Made by a program: the position numbers and the translations under genes. Of a DNA stretch of 64,000 nucleotides, positions 25,575-63,931 are shown piece after piece. The notes below the pieces were generated by a model. That model was not told the DNA's origin, did not search any database, and saw only the letters and a program-made list of their open reading frames with translations. The stretch's first letter is position 1, and each line of letters starts with the position of its first letter. The stretch comes from Escherichia phage ManiMatter_Bas94. The stretch lies in sequence record PQ850617.1. The stretch is one strand, 5' to 3'.

Positions 25575-26321
25575 TTAGAATGGGCTGTCGTTGTCGTCTT
25601 CGTAGGTAGAAGCAGGCTCTTTATCAATCGTAGGGATTGAAGGAGTAGCTTCTTTCTGTTCTGTTTCAGAAGCACGAGTAATTTCACGACCAGCCAGAGG
25701 TATGTTCTTAGCGTCATTAGCTTGAGTAAGCAGGTTGCGCTGGAACGGGAACATCAGTTGATAAGATGCTACGTTCTCATCGGTTTCAGCATACGGTTCG
25801 AAGAATACCAGAGGACTACGAGCTTCACCAACTGCTGCACGATATTTGGTTGGGATTGGAGAAATGGTTTTGATGGAGTTTTTAACTTCACCAGCTTTGT
25901 TAGTGTAGGAGTTAACCAGAATGTTAACAGGCTGACCTAACAGCACATCCTTAAACCAAGACAGATCACCTTTCAGTGCTTGAATGCTTGGGTCAATCAT
26001 CTTGCAAAGATCAAGGATACCAGAGTTCTTAGCTCGTGGGTTTACATCATAACTCTTGAACTGGCAAGCAGGACGTGGTTCTAATGCCTTACCATCGGAA
26101 TCTTTACCCGTAGCATCAACACCAATCAGCTCGAAAGCCAAATCCATACGGAAAGCTGGATTCTTAGGAGTTACTGCTTTGGTCTTCGGGTCAATCCAAG
26201 GGTCACGATTGTGAACACCCAAACCTACTACACGAACAATACGTGCTTCGTATTCACCATCAGGGATTACATCGTAGTTGGATTTACGAGAAGAAGTTGC
26301 GATAGTTGGAATCATAGACAT
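25575..26321 (-). CDS. ssb: Single-stranded DNA-binding protein
   Basis: Acidic C-terminal tail ...YEDDNDSPF ending in Phe as in SSB proteins; sits in replication block. Confidence 0.55.
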   Translation of the reverse strand: MSMIPTIATSSRKSNYDVIPDGEYEARIVRVVGLGVHNRDPWIDPKTKAVTPKNPAFRMDLAFELIGVDATGKDSDGKALEPRPACQFKSYDVNPRAKNSGILDLCKMIDPSIQALKGDLSWFKDVLLGQPVNILVNSYTNKAGEVKNSIKTISPIPTKYRAAVGEARSPLVFFEPYAETDENVASYQLMFPFQRNLLTQANDAKNIPLAGREITRASETEQKEATPSIPTIDKEPASTYEDDNDSPF

Positions 26322-26380
26322 ATTTTAATTTCCTTATTTAATTTGAAAGATTGTTGCTCTCTTTGAGCGGTTATGTATAA

Positions 26381-26389
26381 TATACATTA
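26381..26389 (-). promoter_or_regulatory. TAATGTATA promoter-like element (part of a near-palindrome)
   Basis: Minus-orientation TAATGTATA ~60 nt upstream of SSB start; plus-strand TTATGTATA abuts at 26371-26379. Confidence 0.4.
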
Positions 26390-26452
26390 CGCTTATACCG
26401 ATAAGAGTACTATATAATATAAGTGTCTTTGGTAGTAGATATAACACACTAG

Positions 26453-26461
26453 TAATGTATA
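26453..26461 (+). promoter_or_regulatory. TAATGTATA element, plus orientation, in 400-bp intergenic region
   Basis: Exact 9-mer; no obvious plus-strand gene downstream. Confidence 0.3.
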
Positions 26462-26742
26462 TATTGTATAGCTGATAAAGTTATTGCAGGCTTGTATATT
26501 GGGCAATTCATAGAATCCCTTGCAAGTACCGAAGGGCAGGAGCCACCTGCGAGATAAAAATAGAGAATTAAGGAATCCTTGATTTAGGTTGTAGGGACTC
26601 CTAGGGACTTTGATTCTCTATTTAAAAGAATAAATAATTACTATATCTAATACTAAACAGACTGAAACAAAGATAAGAAACTTCTTATAAATACTCATTA
26701 CTTATCATCTAAATAGTTAACTAATCTCTGATATAAAGAAGT

Positions 26743-26931
26743 TTAAATCAAGCATCCATCACAAACATAGTCTCCACTAAGAGACTCTTGTAACAAACGA
26801 TTTTGTTCCTCTGAATATAGAGAATTTACTAATTCTTTTAACTCTGAAAGAGTGATGAAATCAATAGTATTTCCATTATCTAAAATAGAAGAGTTAAGTA
26901 AATATTCATTGTCTTTAATTTTATTAATCAT
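26743..26931 (-). CDS. Hypothetical protein
   Basis: 62-aa ORF. Confidence 0.35.
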   Translation of the reverse strand: MINKIKDNEYLLNSSILDNGNTIDFITLSELKELVNSLYSEEQNRLLQESLSGDYVCDGCLI

Positions 26932-54661: not shown

Positions 54662-54958
54662 TTACTTGTCGGCTTCAATCTCTTGATGCTTAGCTATAGC
54701 TACTCGCAAGTCCTCATTAGCACGAGTAAGGCGTAATACTTCATGGTTGAGATTCTGAAGACGCTTGTTTCTATCTTCAACTTGCGTAATAAGATCATTA
54801 AGAGTTGCTTTAACTTTCTCATTATACATCTCATCCACTCGGACTAGAGATTTGTACATTCTCTCCCAGCTTGCTGCTTTGTTCCTAAGGATAATAAATC
54901 CTATAACGCTGATAGTTAAACAGCTTACAAAAAGGAATTTATATATCTCTAAAGTCAT
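54662..54958 (-). CDS. Membrane-anchored coiled-coil protein
   Basis: N-terminal TM FLFVSCLTISVIGFIIL then heptad-rich region. Confidence 0.4.
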   Translation of the reverse strand: MTLEIYKFLFVSCLTISVIGFIILRNKAASWERMYKSLVRVDEMYNEKVKATLNDLITQVEDRNKRLQNLNHEVLRLTRANEDLRVAIAKHQEIEADK

Positions 54959-55157
54959 ATTATTTACCCTTTATCAGAGATTAAAAGTAATATTATTTAA
55001 GTAAGTTATATTTAGTAAACTTATTTTCTAAGAAATTTTCAAAGGGTCTATATACAGAGCATTACCCATAGTCCCAGAACACTACCATCTTTTTCAATAA
55101 ATTTACTAAGTGGTTGGTTTATAAAGGAATTTAGTTTGTCAAATCTGGCACTAGTGA

Positions 55158-55547
55158 TTATTCCCTAGAGCTATTATCGAACACTAAATCACCACAATAC
55201 ATAGGATTGGCATACCATTTTGGCACCCCTTCGCTCTTACTCTGAAAGTAAGTCCCACTGTACAGCGGAACATAATTCTTCTTAAGGGCACGTTTAGCAA
55301 GTCTCTCGCTTTCTCCAATGGCTTGCTTAGTCATCGGATTTTTATCACGAATCAGCTTTACATAACGTTTATAAGGTTTCTCCTGTTTTAATAGTACCGG
55401 AATCCACTCAAACTGGTTCTTTTGTCTTATCACCTGTTCAGCGGTCAGTTTTCGTTGGGCCATTCTATTTATCACGGTATCCGCAACCATAGCCTTACAT
55501 GCGGTTGGCTGATTCCCTGCCTCATAATAAATAGTCAATGTCAACAT
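55158..55547 (-). CDS. Cell-wall hydrolase-like protein (SleB/CwlJ-type)
   Basis: TIYYEAGNQPTACKAMVADTVINRMAQ resembles the family's N-terminal signature. Confidence 0.45.
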   Translation of the reverse strand: MLTLTIYYEAGNQPTACKAMVADTVINRMAQRKLTAEQVIRQKNQFEWIPVLLKQEKPYKRYVKLIRDKNPMTKQAIGESERLAKRALKKNYVPLYSGTYFQSKSEGVPKWYANPMYCGDLVFDNSSRE

Positions 55548-59491: not shown

Positions 59492-60303
59492 CTTTCAATT
59501 ATAAGGGCACTATTGCCCCGCTCGCTATGAGCTTTCAAGCCATTATTGACTTAACTATAAACGCTCACTATAAACGCTTATAGGTAAGCGGAGCGGTCTT
59601 ATCAGGAGTTAACCTTGCCGCTCCCTTATCCGTGATGTTTCATCTGGTATCTTTAATTAGTCGCTATAAATAAAGCCGACTTGATAGCGATGATCAATCA
59701 TCACAATAAGGCCAGTGTGTCCGACTCAATTTAATTACATTACTGTAACCGTCGGCAATATCGTTTACTCTGCTTTCGCTCCCGCCTATCCTTTTGTATC
59801 AGCTCTTTATCGCTAGTCATCGCCCACTACGGGATACTATTGCGAAAAAGTCACTAACCGCCTAATATTCCGGCGTTTTATATCTTTCGGCAAGTTTACT
59901 ACACAACACGACTATGTACTTTCATCCTAAGACGAATATCAAGCCGCTCACGTCGTAAACGTTCACACTAAAACCTTATTGTTAAATAGCAATTTGCCAC
60001 TTTTTAACCGTTCGCCGCCGCCCTCAATTGGGCGTTAATTCGTCGGGATTGTCTACCCTGATCAGTTTCTTTCATTGTAGCGCCTTTTTAGCTAGGCCGC
60101 CGCTACCCATTAACCGTGGGCGATTAGTTTTAGCCTTGCGTGCACTCAATGATTCCGCTTACCAGTGGTGACGTTTCCAGTTAAGGGATTGTAAAGCTGT
60201 TTACCCTGATAATTTAGGGAGCTTTACGCCGTTTTATCTGGTATGTTTTCCGATGGTCATTATCATCCAACATATGCAACCGATATAGGGGAACGTTTAA
60301 ATT

Positions 60304-60315
60304 ATTAAAGAGCGG
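60304..60315. repeat. TTTAAAGAGCGG motif, copy 1 of 5
   Basis: Others at 60542-60555, 60677-60690, 60789-60801, 61009-61022. Confidence 0.6.
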
Positions 60316-60573
60316 TAAATCTGTCAGTGTGCTTTCTCACACTACGCAACTGTTAGCCGTTGTGTCGCTTTTTCACTGAAGCGGTGATTTGCTTAGTGAC
60401 TTGTGCTTATTATGAATCATTTTGCTTCCGCCGTCAATCACTTTTTTAATCTTTTTTCATCGTTCCCGCTGTTGGGAAGATATATCAATCAGCTATATTT
60501 GATTGAAGATTAAGCGATCAGGCTTGAACTTATGATTCATATTTTTAAAGAGCGGTTTTTCTGACTTGTGATC

Positions 60574-60602
60574 AGTATAAACTTACTTTCTCACGTTGTC
60601 AA
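60574..60602 (-). promoter_or_regulatory. Sigma70-type promoter P1
   Basis: Minus strand TTGACA-N17-TATACT. Confidence 0.55.
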
Positions 60603-60721
60603 TCTCTTTTTTATCGTCTTCTTTGATTCTCTTCCCTTATCTCGCGTGAATCTATGCGAAAGGGCAAGACGATAAATTTTTAAAGAGCGGGATTTTTTAA
60701 GTCATCGCTGACCTTGTACAC

Positions 60722-60801
60722 TCATTATAGGTTAGGCTTTTTCCGGTGTCAATATTCTTTTTCAGAATATTTTCACTTTCTAGCCTGATTTTTAAAGAGC
60801 G
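60722..60801. repeat. ~80-bp direct repeat, copy 1
   Basis: CATTATAGGTTAGGCTTTT...TTTTCACTTTCTAGCCT..TTTTTAAAGAGCG, ~90% identical to 60942-61022. Confidence 0.7.
60724..60752 (-). promoter_or_regulatory. Sigma70-type consensus promoter P2
   Basis: Minus strand TTGACA-N17-TATAAT, AT-rich upstream; inside 80-bp repeat. Confidence 0.65.
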
Positions 60802-60941
60802 TTTAAAGCTGTATGGCTCCCATAACACCACTTGATGATCAGTTAACCTACGATCATTCAGGACTATAGTACCCGCTTAGTTGCGTCTGACTTGCTTCAC
60901 TCACTAGGGAGTTACTTGAGCGGTCATCTTGTCTTTCTAAG

Positions 60942-61022
60942 CTCATTATAGGTTAGGCTTTTCAGTTGTCAAATACTTTTTCAAGTATTTTTTCACTTTC
61001 TAGCCTACTTTTTAAAGAGCGG
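60942..61022. repeat. ~80-bp direct repeat, copy 2
   Basis: See copy 1. Confidence 0.7.
60945..60972 (-). promoter_or_regulatory. Sigma70-type consensus promoter P3
   Basis: Minus strand TTGACA-N16-TATAAT; second copy of 80-bp repeat. Confidence 0.65.
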
Positions 61023-61303
61023 GGCAATTTCTTGCCTTGTATGTTTTACATCGTACCCGATGGAAATGAGTATACGCGAGCCTTTAGAAAGTGCAATAGG
61101 GGAAAGCAAATTATTTTAAACTTTTTCACTGTAGGGAAGATAGAAGAGCGGGCTGACGTGGTACACCATAGGAAACGGCTTGTAAAGCGATAATAGGCGG
61201 CCTAAAACGCACCACAATGAGCTAAAAGGGGATAAGGTATATAATCACCTTAGAAAAGAAAAAAGCGCCTTTATTGGCGCTTATAGGGATGATTTAAAGT
61301 TTT

Positions 61304-61555
61304 TCACCATTTAGGCAAATCTGCATCAAGTAGGCCAGCAAGTGACAATTCACCGTCAACATATATCGATCTGAAATCGTCCCGATTGATATCAATGCGT
61401 ACCATTTGCAGCCATTTTTTGGCCTCGTTAAAGCTCATTGAGCAAAAAGAAACCGTGGGCAATATTACGTCACCATTTTGCAAGCCGAACGCGATAAAAG
61501 TATCGCACACGCAGCAAGAAAGACCGTTCGACAATTTAATCTCTTTGATACTCAT
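61304..61555 (-). CDS. Small Cys-containing protein, paralog B
   Basis: MSIKEIKLSNGLSCCVCDTFIAF...RDDFRSIYVDG; ~55-60% identical to 56270-56515. Confidence 0.45.
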   Translation of the reverse strand: MSIKEIKLSNGLSCCVCDTFIAFGLQNGDVILPTVSFCSMSFNEAKKWLQMVRIDINRDDFRSIYVDGELSLAGLLDADLPKW

Positions 61556-61582
61556 GTTTTTACACTCCCAAAGATAGGTTAT

Positions 61583-61729
61583 TTATTTGCTGAATTTAGC
61601 GCCATAAAACTTACTAATCTTGTTTTTCGGGCTTAACTTGCTATCAGTGAGCGCTTCAATCACTTCACAAACGATCAGGGCAAGTAAAGGAAAAACTACA
61701 GCCATAAACATCATTACCAGAATAATCAT
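61583..61729 (-). CDS. Small hydrophobic protein (48 aa), tentative
   Basis: MIILVMMFMAVVFPLLALIV...; below track threshold. Confidence 0.25.
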   Translation of the reverse strand: MIILVMMFMAVVFPLLALIVCEVIEALTDSKLSPKNKISKFYGAKFSK

Positions 61730-62172
61730 TTCTATCACTCCAATCACTCAATCCGTAGGCTTCAATTTACTACTACTTAATAAGGAAAGCAATCACCACG
61801 GGCAAAATACTACCCGCAGAACAGACCACGGGGGAACGTGCCAGATAATGCGGTAATAATATTCCACTTAAATAATTAGTTAACTATTAATAACATTACT
61901 CAAACATCAAACGTTAAAAGAAAAGAATAACAGAACGCTGAAAAAGAAAAGAATAAAAAGAAATATAATAAACATCAAACATAATCTTTCCACTTAATTA
62001 ATGCATATATCATTATTGCACTCATAATTATCACCATTGAAACTATTTACATTCAAACTATGGGGGATGGCGATAGTTGCTATCCGGTATTAATAGCCTC
62101 AATATAATCAAGCATTAACAATGGCTAGCCTTTCCCATACTCTTTTAAGGGGCACTAAATAAACGGGTATTA

Positions 62173-62180
62173 AATGTATA
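62173..62180 (+). promoter_or_regulatory. AATGTATA element, plus orientation
   Basis: TAAATGTATAGG in divergent intergenic region. Confidence 0.3.
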
Positions 62181-62411
62181 GGATGTTATACACGGGGCAA
62201 TAACTGCACGGGATAGGGCACGGGAAAAGTGGAACGTTGAAAAAGAAGGTAAAGGCATTGCCAATACCCATTTTTTAAATGAGGACTCCCCCTTTTTAAC
62301 AATTCGTCGCGGAGCGCCTAGCCCCACTCGGTCAAATCAGAATTTTAAACCCTTATATATAAGCATATGCCCCAACTTTATGTTGTGGATTTAAGCTTGA
62401 GGAACTATTTA

Positions 62412-62576
62412 ATGAATCTAATTAAAGTGTTTAGACGAATGAAATGTAAGCACAATTACTATCCTCTTCGTAAAGCTTACGGGGATGAAAGAATACACGG
62501 GCTATACTTATCAACATGGAGGTGTAGGGAATGTGGTAAGTTAAAGTTTAGTGAATGGGTAGACAGACCGGGATGA
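62412..62576 (+). CDS. Zinc-ribbon small protein
   Basis: ATG 62412 with SD GAGGAA; CKHNY...CRECGK. Confidence 0.4.
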   Translation: MNLIKVFRRMKCKHNYYPLRKAYGDERIHGLYLSTWRCRECGKLKFSEWVDRPG

Positions 62577-62747
62577 TAGTGCCTTAACGTGACATAGCCT
62601 TTATGAAGTCCCCTTTATGACATGCCCTTTACTTCAGCGTACACGGGTTGTCAATGATGACATGGCCTTTACGGGTAGGTCTTATGATGTGCCCTTTATA
62701 CTTCAGAGACAGCTACTACGTAGCGTCGTATTCAGAGGAGAAGAATT

Positions 62748-62969
62748 ATGAATTTAGTATTAGACTTTTTATCAGAGGTTGTGCCTCGCTTTCGTACGGA
62801 GACTTGTGCCTTCGTTAAAATATCCCCTGAAGAATTAGAATGCATTGGTCGTCTGGTTGACTTGGATGACGATGAAGAATTTGATGCAACGATGGAAGTT
62901 AGTAGCCTAGGATGGTTATTCTTCCGAGCGTTCACCACTATCAAACCACACACTTATAAGGAATACTAA
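62748..62969 (+). CDS. Small acidic hypothetical protein
   Basis: SD AGGAG; 73 aa. Confidence 0.4.
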   Translation: MNLVLDFLSEVVPRFRTETCAFVKISPEELECIGRLVDLDDDEEFDATMEVSSLGWLFFRAFTTIKPHTYKEY

Positions 62970-62972
62970 TTT

Positions 62973-63404
62973 ATGTTAGATTGTAAATATCAAGGAGATG
63001 ATATGTTAGATTTAATCCACACTACTCGCCCTAATTCTAAAACTAAAACACAACCATCTACTCTGGAAGTAATTGAATACGAATCTACTAAACATGATCA
63101 CCTCCCTGACTATGCTCGTGCAATGATTGAGATGATTGAAGAAGCTGAATATGAAATGCTCCATGATTACATCACCTCCAAAGATGAATGGCATCGTGAT
63201 GTTCGAATCGAAGAAGATGGTACAGAAACAATTACGTGGATTCACAAGAGTGAGTTAGTAGACGACGCACTGCGAGACTACGAAAAATTTTTGGTCGACG
63301 GCTCTATTCTTTTAGAGGAAGAGAAGGGTGTAGAACTTCCGTGGGAGGGTGAGACAGTTGCTTTAGGTAAGATGTTTAACCTGTCCGTTGGTGATTGTAA
63401 GTAA
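62973..63404 (+). CDS. Acidic hypothetical protein (start probably ATG 63003)
   Basis: Strong SD AAGGAG before second ATG; Glu/Asp-rich. Confidence 0.4.
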   Translation: MLDCKYQGDDMLDLIHTTRPNSKTKTQPSTLEVIEYESTKHDHLPDYARAMIEMIEEAEYEMLHDYITSKDEWHRDVRIEEDGTETITWIHKSELVDDALRDYEKFLVDGSILLEEEKGVELPWEGETVALGKMFNLSVGDCK

Positions 63405-63460: not shown

Positions 63461-63931
63461 ATGTTTGGAGAAAACGGAGGACTCACACCTGCACAGGTAG
63501 CTGAGATTACAGGAAGATTACCCGGAGTAACGGAAGAACTTGAATCCAAGGGTATGAACCCAAGCAATGGGAAGTTTCAAAAGGGAAATAAATTCGGACG
63601 ACCCAAAGGTAGTAGAGGTAAACTGACACAATTAATGTTGGACCGTGTTGCTGCAAGTCATTTGTCTCCTGATGAAGTGTTAATTCAAATTTACGAAGAT
63701 CCTAATATTCCACCTGATCTTAGATTCAAGGCTGCATCAAAAGTTGCAGATCTGGTATATCCTAAGGCGGCCTCTGTTGAAGTTAAGATTGAGGAAGAGA
63801 ATGTAGTCAACGAAGAATCACTGAATGCACAAATCAAGGACTTCTTGACTGGAGCACTTGGTATCGACGTTATGCCTCCAGAAGACAACTCCGAGGACGC
63901 TGAAAAGGGGGAGGAAGCGGACGAGAGTTAA
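63461..63931 (+). CDS. DNA-binding protein, possible terminase small subunit
   Basis: Basic N-terminal KGNKFGRPKGSRGK, acidic C-terminus; sits where packaging genes would begin. Confidence 0.3.
   Translation: MFGENGGLTPAQVAEITGRLPGVTEELESKGMNPSNGKFQKGNKFGRPKGSRGKLTQLMLDRVAASHLSPDEVLIQIYEDPNIPPDLRFKAASKVADLVYPKAASVEVKIEEENVVNEESLNAQIKDFLTGALGIDVMPPEDNSEDAEKGEEADES

Follow-up and report, generated by a model that had tools for sequence, protein, structure and literature searches.

The window, a 64,000-nucleotide stretch of the genome of Escherichia phage ManiMatter_Bas94 (PQ850617.1), contains an AT-rich segment at 61860-62060 that sits between two gene blocks, since the start of the last leftward ORF (61729 or 61747) and that of the first rightward ORF (62367) flank it. 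This position had already been recognized in an earlier, sequence-only reading of the window. The last leftward gene has its ATG at 61729, preceded by a GGAG ribosome-binding site, and the mechanically defined ORF extends to a GTG at 61747. The genes and signals on the leftward side of the segment are as follows:

61583-61729, minus strand: last leftward gene in the ORF list, encoding a 48-aa hydrophobic protein (PHROG 7482, unknown function, E 2e-11; annotated in Bas93)
61764-61792, minus strand: weak sigma70-like promoter candidate, TTGCTT-17-TAAATT (7.5 bits in a PWM scan), of inferred function
61263-61282, minus strand: intrinsic-terminator-like hairpin from a terminator scan, closing a two-gene terminal mini-operon
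60409-60972, minus strand: four strong sigma70 early promoters found by consensus scan (PWM 12.0-16.0 bits, among the ten best of the window)

The hairpin at 61263-61282 matches the layout described for SU10 and phiEco32 (PMC4281155). The four early promoters (TTGACA-16-TATAAT at 60972, TTGACA-17-TATAAT at 60752, TTGACA-17-TATACT at 60602, and TTGACG-17-CATAAT at 60437) form a cluster equivalent to promoters listed in the S2 table of the SU10 study (PMC4281155). This cluster occupies a 570-nt non-coding stretch, with the hairpin (61282 to 61263) upstream of it. Two proteins near the segment carry functional PHROG labels, namely "polymerase" for an 83-aa protein (61304-61555) and "ABC transporter" for a 143-aa protein (62973-63404), and these labels have been carried into Bas93 and other annotations. 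Because neither protein has a Pfam domain, both labels look like propagated misnomers.

By its sequence, the window is that of a Kuravirus (phiEco32-like) podophage. A homology search returned Bas93 at 93.8% identity to the window, with LAMP, NJ01, and phiEco32 also related. The 96 phage records that match the region, these three included, all belong to E. coli or Shigella phages, and every opened record that carries a lineage gives Gordonclarkvirinae/Kuravirus. Members of this group are prolate podophages that encode a phage sigma factor and transcribe their early and middle genes leftward and their late genes rightward (PMC8948821). Genomes of 67-69 kb typify the clade to which the window belongs, and Kuraviruses are common candidates for phage therapy against E. 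coli, with a molecular biology that has been little studied (PMC11990801).

The position of the physical genome ends can be read from these relatives. The records of phiEco32, SU10, and LAMP all start at AGCCTTTC, which corresponds to position 62127 of the window. In phiEco32 and SU10, the terminal repeat beginning at this sequence is 192-193 bp long, and the ends of SU10, with a repeat of 193 bp, were defined experimentally by a sharp drop-off in read coverage (PMC4281155). The linear LAMP record has a 172-bp repeat annotated at its start; its first base aligns to 62127 of the window and its last base to about 62125. In addition, a metagenomic contig of 68,018 bp from the same clade terminates 7 nt past the phiEco32-type right border. 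Because the ends of relatives align there, the phage is predicted to carry its direct terminal repeat (DTR) at the following position:

62127-62318, plus strand: direct terminal repeat, predicted by homology (62127-62298 if 172 bp long as in LAMP, extending to about 62318 if 192-193 bp long as in phiEco32 and SU10)

The sequence-only reading had proposed checking whether the physical genome ends map to the segment, and the ends of phiEco32, SU10, and LAMP do fall beside it, at 62127, 67 bp to the right. Since the DTR of relatives maps to 62127-62298 or 62318, the segment itself is not part of the repeat; it lies entirely outside it, 67-267 bp interior to the right-hand DTR copy. The segment belongs to the non-coding DNA on the inner side of the right-hand DTR of a linear genome. 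Where genome ends are joined, as in concatemers during replication and in the circularly joined assembly studied here, it makes up the left flank of the junction. What had appeared as a point of divergence between gene blocks represents the joined ends of a linear genome with terminal repeats, because the ends of relatives map to 62127. More generally, what looks like an intergenic region between divergent genes in a phage assembly can be the place where physical termini have been joined.

Across the 27 aligned phages, the DTR (62127-62298) has a conservation of 0.905. Its two borders (62124-62130 and 62316-62322) share a motif, GCT/AGCC on the left and CCT/AGCC on the right, where the slash marks the border (GGCT/AGCC in phiEco32). 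This resemblance suggests a common nicking or cut-site sequence at both borders.

The segment is clearly AT-rich, although the earlier estimate of more than about 80% AT proved slightly too high: the measured value is 77.6% (A 98, T 58, C 32, G 13), with 40-nt sub-windows reaching 80-85%, compared to 57.8% for the window. The most AT-rich 200-bp stretch of the 64-kb window peaks here, with 78.1% at 61853, followed by stretches at 54937 (75.6%) and 26555 (74.6%). The reiterated units noted in the earlier reading are present as two exact copies each, AAAAGAAAAGAATAA at 61916 and 61942 and AAACATCAAAC at 61902 and 61970, and a third exact pair that it did not list, TTCCACTTAAWTAAT, is found at 61862 and 61988. 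The resulting spacings are 26, 68, and 126 nt, with two copies of each repeat. None of 2000 dinucleotide-preserving shuffles yielded an exact repeat of 15 nt (longest repeat: mean 8.4, maximum 14). The A-tracts described in the same reading are there as well, with six runs of at least four A in 61916-61959, and these runs are not helically phased. Phased A-tract bending or curved DNA was rejected, with an AA/TT periodicity power at 10-11 nt below the 95th percentile of the window.

In a nearest-neighbour calculation, the duplex stability of the segment is -220 kcal/mol per 200 bp, 4.6 sd above the window mean of -263 (sd 9.4), and two other sites, at 26552 and 54937, tie with it as the least stable 200 bp of the window. 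At shorter scales the latter site (54937-55040) ranks first, being the least stable over 50-100 bp and, with 83% at 54940, the richest in AT over 100 bp; it falls where ORF 54662-54958 starts, in the gap that precedes ORF 55158-55547. A structured RNA or DNA element was considered for the flagged region and rejected: there is no Rfam match at E ≤ 1 within 60300-63000, single-strand folding of 61860-62126 is insignificant (z -0.22), and folding of a block a transcript (see below) gives a z of -1.67. No tRNA is found anywhere in the window.

The 377-nt interval that separates the last ORF from the DTR has homologues in 79 phage records, nearly all of them unannotated. Alignments were built from 7, then 16, then 27-29 sequences, drawn from GenBank phages and four metagenomic contigs; a pattern scan of IMG/VR returned two loci only, and a metagenome scan returned 45 loci, 4 of which are real homologues. 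At the sequence level, the alignments show that the region is a mosaic in which two conserved blocks, a and c, bracket a poorly conserved, indel-prone, A-rich spacer b, followed by a second spacer, d, that leads to the DTR border:

61812-61878, plus strand: block a, CCGCAgaACAGACCACGGGgAAAcaT.GCcAGATAaTGCGGTaaTAATATaCCACTTAAATAATT (conservation 0.946, 42 of 67 columns invariant in 27 phages)
61879-61988, plus strand: spacer b, A-rich and indel-prone, housing the AAAAGAAAAGAATAA and AAACATCAAAC repeats (conservation 0.658 in 27 phages)
61935-61945, plus strand: invariant island ACGCTGAAAAA within spacer b (11 of 11 columns invariant in 27 phages)
61989-62062, plus strand: block c, TCCACTTAATTAATGCATATATCATTATTGCACTCATAAT..ATTGAAACTATT..AACTATGGGG (conservation 0.941, 52 of 74 columns invariant in 27 phages)
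62063-62126, plus strand: spacer d, hypervariable, from block c to the DTR border (conservation 0.668 in 27 phages)

Features of block a are an inverted repeat (CCGCA/TGCGG), the motif CCACGGGG, and the first copy of a 13-nt repeat, CCACTTAAWTAAT, whose second copy sits in block c; the repeat occurs nowhere else in the window. Block c is free of indels through its core to AACTATGGGG in all 29 sequences, and its variants read TTTACATTCAAAC or TTATCAACGTAAC. Spacer b, by comparison, varies continuously in length between 81 and 120 nt among 28 relatives, with no periodicity (Rayleigh R 0.19 at 10.5 nt). Because these length differences are not multiples of three, the segment is taken to be non-coding, and coding potential was rejected by this inference. 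The invariant island in spacer b is part of an extended motif, GAACGYTGAAAAAGAA, which has two sites in the window, at 61933 and, within the DTR, at 62232. The repeats housed in spacer b are poorly kept: among 16 aligned phages, the first copy of AAAAGAAAAGAATAA is found in three (the window, Bas93, and EcoN5) and the second copy of AAACATCAAAC in four (the window, Bas93, one IMG/VR contig, and PGN6866). A unit of about 26 nt, also A-rich, is present in one to three copies, with one in phiEco32 and SU10, two in the window, and three in Bas92.

Spacer d is hypervariable in sequence, falling into 17 clusters at 85% similarity, yet its length is restricted to a few classes. In the 29 sequences it measures 59-61 nt (12 sequences), 69-72 nt (15 sequences), 79 nt, or 82 nt, with no lengths between, giving a Rayleigh R of 0.87 at 10.5-11 nt. 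This spacing of about 10 nt, or one helical turn, suggests that block c is constrained in helical phase relative to the DTR border. The 10-12 nt by which the longer forms exceed the others look like a duplicated TTATC/ACAGTGCT motif beside the cut site. A few ancestral duplications of 10-12 nt, spread by recombination, could also yield part of the length pattern; the sequences are not independent of one another, and this phylogenetic non-independence weakens the statistics given above.

The right-end intergenic regions of phiEco32 (EU330206, 77057-77361) and SU10 (KM044272, 76821-77134) are homologous to that of the window, with 72-81% identity and nearly identical blocks a and c, and are likewise bounded by the last leftward gene on one side and by the right-hand 193-bp terminal repeat on the other. 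They differ from the window in having one of the A-rich units of about 26 nt where the window has two, and in the presence, on the left, of a further gene of 873 nt (gp128/CDS125) under a consensus TTGACA promoter, which the window lacks. No annotation of this region is given in either record, and no discussion of it was found in the literature searched. Two arrangements thus exist to the left of block a among the aligned phages: in phiEco32, SU10, SR02, and EC.W2-6 the position is taken by a gp128-type gene served by its own TTGACA promoter, and in the window, LAMP, NJ01, and others by a small ORF. Blocks a-c are retained regardless of which gene is present, and hence are not simply the promoter of the last gene.

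A further feature of the wider region is the distribution of CACGGG. Of its 15 sites in the window, 7 fall in 61797-62647, all on the plus strand, with three spaced in tandem within the DTR (62191, 62207, and 62219) and two in or near block a; the sites are kept as ACGGGG in relatives.

Taken with its location, this anatomy could represent a cis-acting concatemer-junction element akin to pacB of T7 and T3, containing a meltable spacer, a reading to which we assign a probability of roughly 40%. Two properties of a pac signal are found here. The element adjoins the cut site, with block c ending 64 nt and the segment 67 nt from the border at 62127, and it combines gene-independent conservation (0.94-0.95 for blocks a and c) with a constrained distance to the border (about 60, 70, or 80 nt). 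Spacer d, which links block c to the cut site, is free in sequence yet quantised in length, and block c is a candidate pacB-like protein recognition site. In such an arrangement, blocks a and c would act in cis as recognition sites while terminase finds and processes the concatemer junction, and block c would be kept in a fixed helical phase relative to the cut GCT/AGCC (62126/62127). The A-rich repeats would then provide a length-tolerant, easily melted or flexible spacer, as opposed to specific binding sites, and would have been generated by local duplication and slippage. Overall, the segment is more likely to be part of a cut/package signal than an iteron-type origin, although a conserved block beside a genome end fits equally an origin, a DNA-entry signal, or a regulator binding site. 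The small terminase subunit was not found by sequence, a 156-aa protein (63461-63931) encoded upstream of the terminase gene having no Pfam or PDB match. No defined cis-acting replication or packaging signal for Kuraviruses was found in the literature searched, which covered the mapped phiEco32 promoters through secondary sources.

In T7, the right terminal repeat is directly flanked on its left by pacB and by the phiOR promoter with its secondary origin. Chung and Hinkle (1990) reportedly placed pacB of T7 and T3 immediately left of the terminal repeat at the concatemer junction. The likeness to the window lies in the linear podophage genomes, the short exact DTRs, and the non-coding cis region directly left of the repeat; there is, however, no sequence similarity between the elements, and T7 has its own RNA polymerase and a phage promoter within the element, whereas the window lacks a conserved gp36 promoter there. 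Chung and Hinkle (1990) is the work cited for the T7/T3 concatemer junction in two later papers (PMC4281155, PMC13236587), and a T7-type mode of replication and processing has been proposed for this phage group (PMC4281155). On general grounds, the element can also be likened to cosB of lambda and pacL of SPP1, with repeated short elements split by AT-rich DNA at a fixed distance from the terminase cut. In those systems, sites for the small terminase subunit are separated by bent or AT-rich DNA near the cut. Unlike in cosB and pacL, no IHF site or phased A-tract bend was found in the segment, and lambda and SPP1 differ further in having cohesive ends or headful packaging instead of exact terminal repeats.

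An alternative reading takes the low stability of the segment as its central property, so that an easily melted AT-rich zone near the genome end would serve as a T7-type origin at which transcription or priming starts DNA synthesis. This would fit the most AT-rich 200 bp of the window and its tied least stable duplex (-220 against a mean of -263 kcal/mol, sd 9.4); an initiator could bind the conserved flanking blocks, and the secondary origin of T7, just left of the right terminal repeat, occupies the equivalent position. The earlier reading had compared the segment to a DNA-unwinding element or an iteron region, an idea of which the T7-type origin is the most defensible form. The first comparison holds as far as low duplex stability is concerned, and is physically plausible, but does not extend to the features of an origin, that is, a DnaA box, an initiator, or iterons. 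The second is not supported. Like lambda ori, plasmid oriV, and the unwinding element of oriC, the segment is an AT-rich, low-stability stretch with direct repeats, and the AT-rich unwinding element expected beside iterons is indeed found (77.6% AT, -220 kcal/mol per 200 bp). Iteron origins, however, have at least three direct repeats of about 17-22 bp that are regularly spaced and conserved; those of the window are two-copy, irregular, and not conserved in relatives, where the unit of about 26 nt varies from one to three copies. DnaA boxes (TTATCCACA) with at most one mismatch number 26 in the window, with none between 59076 and 62507 and so none in 61750-62130, and there is no GATC cluster at the segment. 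No initiator-like gene was found by PHROG and Pfam searches among the six nearest ORFs, whose only matches are PHROG families (of unknown function in four cases, doubtfully labelled in the other two), with no Pfam domain in any. The cumulative GC skew does reach its minimum here, at about 61-62 kb, but this is uninformative because it coincides with the switch in gene orientation. Finally, consensus and PWM scans found weak sigma70-like matches but no conserved promoter pointing into the AT-rich zone, and of the two other sites that are equally unstable, the region at 26300-26900 has phage-sigma promoter motifs on both strands. We consider a T7-type origin, which nothing here specifically favours, an unlikely explanation for the segment.

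Transcription offers another possible function, with the segment acting as a host sigma70 early promoter for the two small terminal genes, its A/T tracts being UP-like, at what is presumed to be the first-entering end of the genome. In phiEco32-like phages, sigma70 promoters at the right end drive leftward transcription of the early genes (PMC4281155, PMC8948821), and the two-gene unit at 61304-61729 ends at the terminator-like hairpin, which closes the unit such that it needs its own promoter at the right. The segment has three weak minus-strand matches (62056, 61992, and 61883) and a 9.6-bit match at 61978. Their scores of 6.5-9.6 bits are low, though, beside the 12-16 bits of the cluster at 60409-60972, and the 2-kb region yields no more of them than shuffles do (4 found, 6.2 expected). 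The best hexamers lie in non-conserved DNA or are not retained in phiEco32, and consensus and PWM scans found no convincing promoter in block c on either strand. The TTGCTT-17-TAAATT candidate (61792 to 61764), the sequence of which is kept in relatives with the same small ORF, is directly upstream of the 48-aa ORF and outside the segment. The last gene of phiEco32 and SU10 has its promoter, ttgacagccttttcctttaatatatag, left of block a, yet blocks a-c are kept in both, and at 67-74 nt the conserved blocks are much longer than two hexamers. A weak early promoter within the segment is conceivable though unlikely, and would leave the long near-invariant blocks unexplained. Phage 7-11, which has validated early promoters at its right end, was considered as an analogy and proved uninformative, because its right end is not AT-rich and lacks similarity. 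It is equally doubtful that the repeats are functionless and that spacer b is neutral, its AT-richness and repeats arising from slippage or duplication and mutational bias. The low conservation of spacer b (0.658), its continuous length (81-120 nt), the one to three repeat copies among close relatives, and the lack of significant single-strand structure (z -0.22), phased A-tracts, or an Rfam match are all consistent with neutrality. Against this, the 11-mer ACGCTGAAAAA within the spacer is invariant in 27 phages, and the DNA between the two repeat copies stays at 69-79% AT in all measured relatives despite turnover of its sequence. Because AT content is held while the sequence turns over, the comparison suggests selection on the composition of the spacer. 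A packaging element, a T7-like origin, a weak early promoter, and a neutral spacer b are not mutually exclusive, as a packaging element and a secondary origin coincide in T7.

A promoter for the phage sigma factor (gp36) in the segment was also considered and rejected. Its core, AATGTATA, is found seven times in the window, where about 4.6 occurrences are expected (an estimate from base composition), with none in the segment; the occurrence at 62173 falls inside the DTR and lacks conservation. Nor does block c contain a conserved gp36-type promoter (tAATGTAtA); it reads TAATGCATA here and TAATACATA in phiEco32. A gp36-like sequence, GAATGTAAA, is found on the minus strand at about 62046-62054, and this stretch of block c differs in phiEco32, SU10, and several others. 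The perfect core within the DTR, AAATGTATA at 62173-62180, is oriented rightward and is matched in part in relatives (TAATGAATA in phiEco32). It could be due to chance, because about 4.6 perfect cores are expected per window.

Returning to the proposed pacB-like packaging element, it is ordinary in its class and uncharacterised in the Kuravirus group. A more specific and more tentative proposal, which we regard as possible but less probable than the general one, is that blocks a and c and the phase-locked spacer constitute an undescribed packaging-initiation signal of Gordonclarkvirinae, a counterpart of pacB from a host-RNA-polymerase era, possibly coupled to a melt-prone zone that primes end replication. 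If so, plasmids carrying a fragment of about 500 bp (61800-62320) would need no further signal to be packaged by Gordonclarkvirinae phages. In practical terms, genome ends at 62127 and about 62318, together with the conserved bipartite element, would help to set correct genome start coordinates, and their positions would aid the design of packaging-competent vectors or engineered genomes. The choice of insertion sites would likewise be guided by this anatomy: insertions would be expected to be tolerated in spacer b, but not where they interrupt block a or c or shift the phase of spacer d.

Two other regions of the window share some of the properties discussed above. The 420-nt AT-rich intergenic region at 26322-26740 is as unstable as the flagged segment and has the phage-sigma core AATGTATA on both strands (26381, minus; 26454, plus), as well as a long inverted repeat at about 26560-26625; it is an alternative candidate for an origin composed of a promoter and an AT-rich zone. 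The other region, at 62589-62699, about 290-400 nt right of the DTR and between ORFs 62367-62576 and 62748-62969, holds an iteron-like array in which a 16-nt unit, ATGAYRTSSCCTTTAY, recurs five times on the same strand, spaced by 14, 14, 40, and 27. Three to five copies are found in relatives (LAMP 3, Bas92 4, Bas93 5, and MAUZ01 5), and by its sequence this array resembles a set of protein-binding sites more closely than does the flagged segment.
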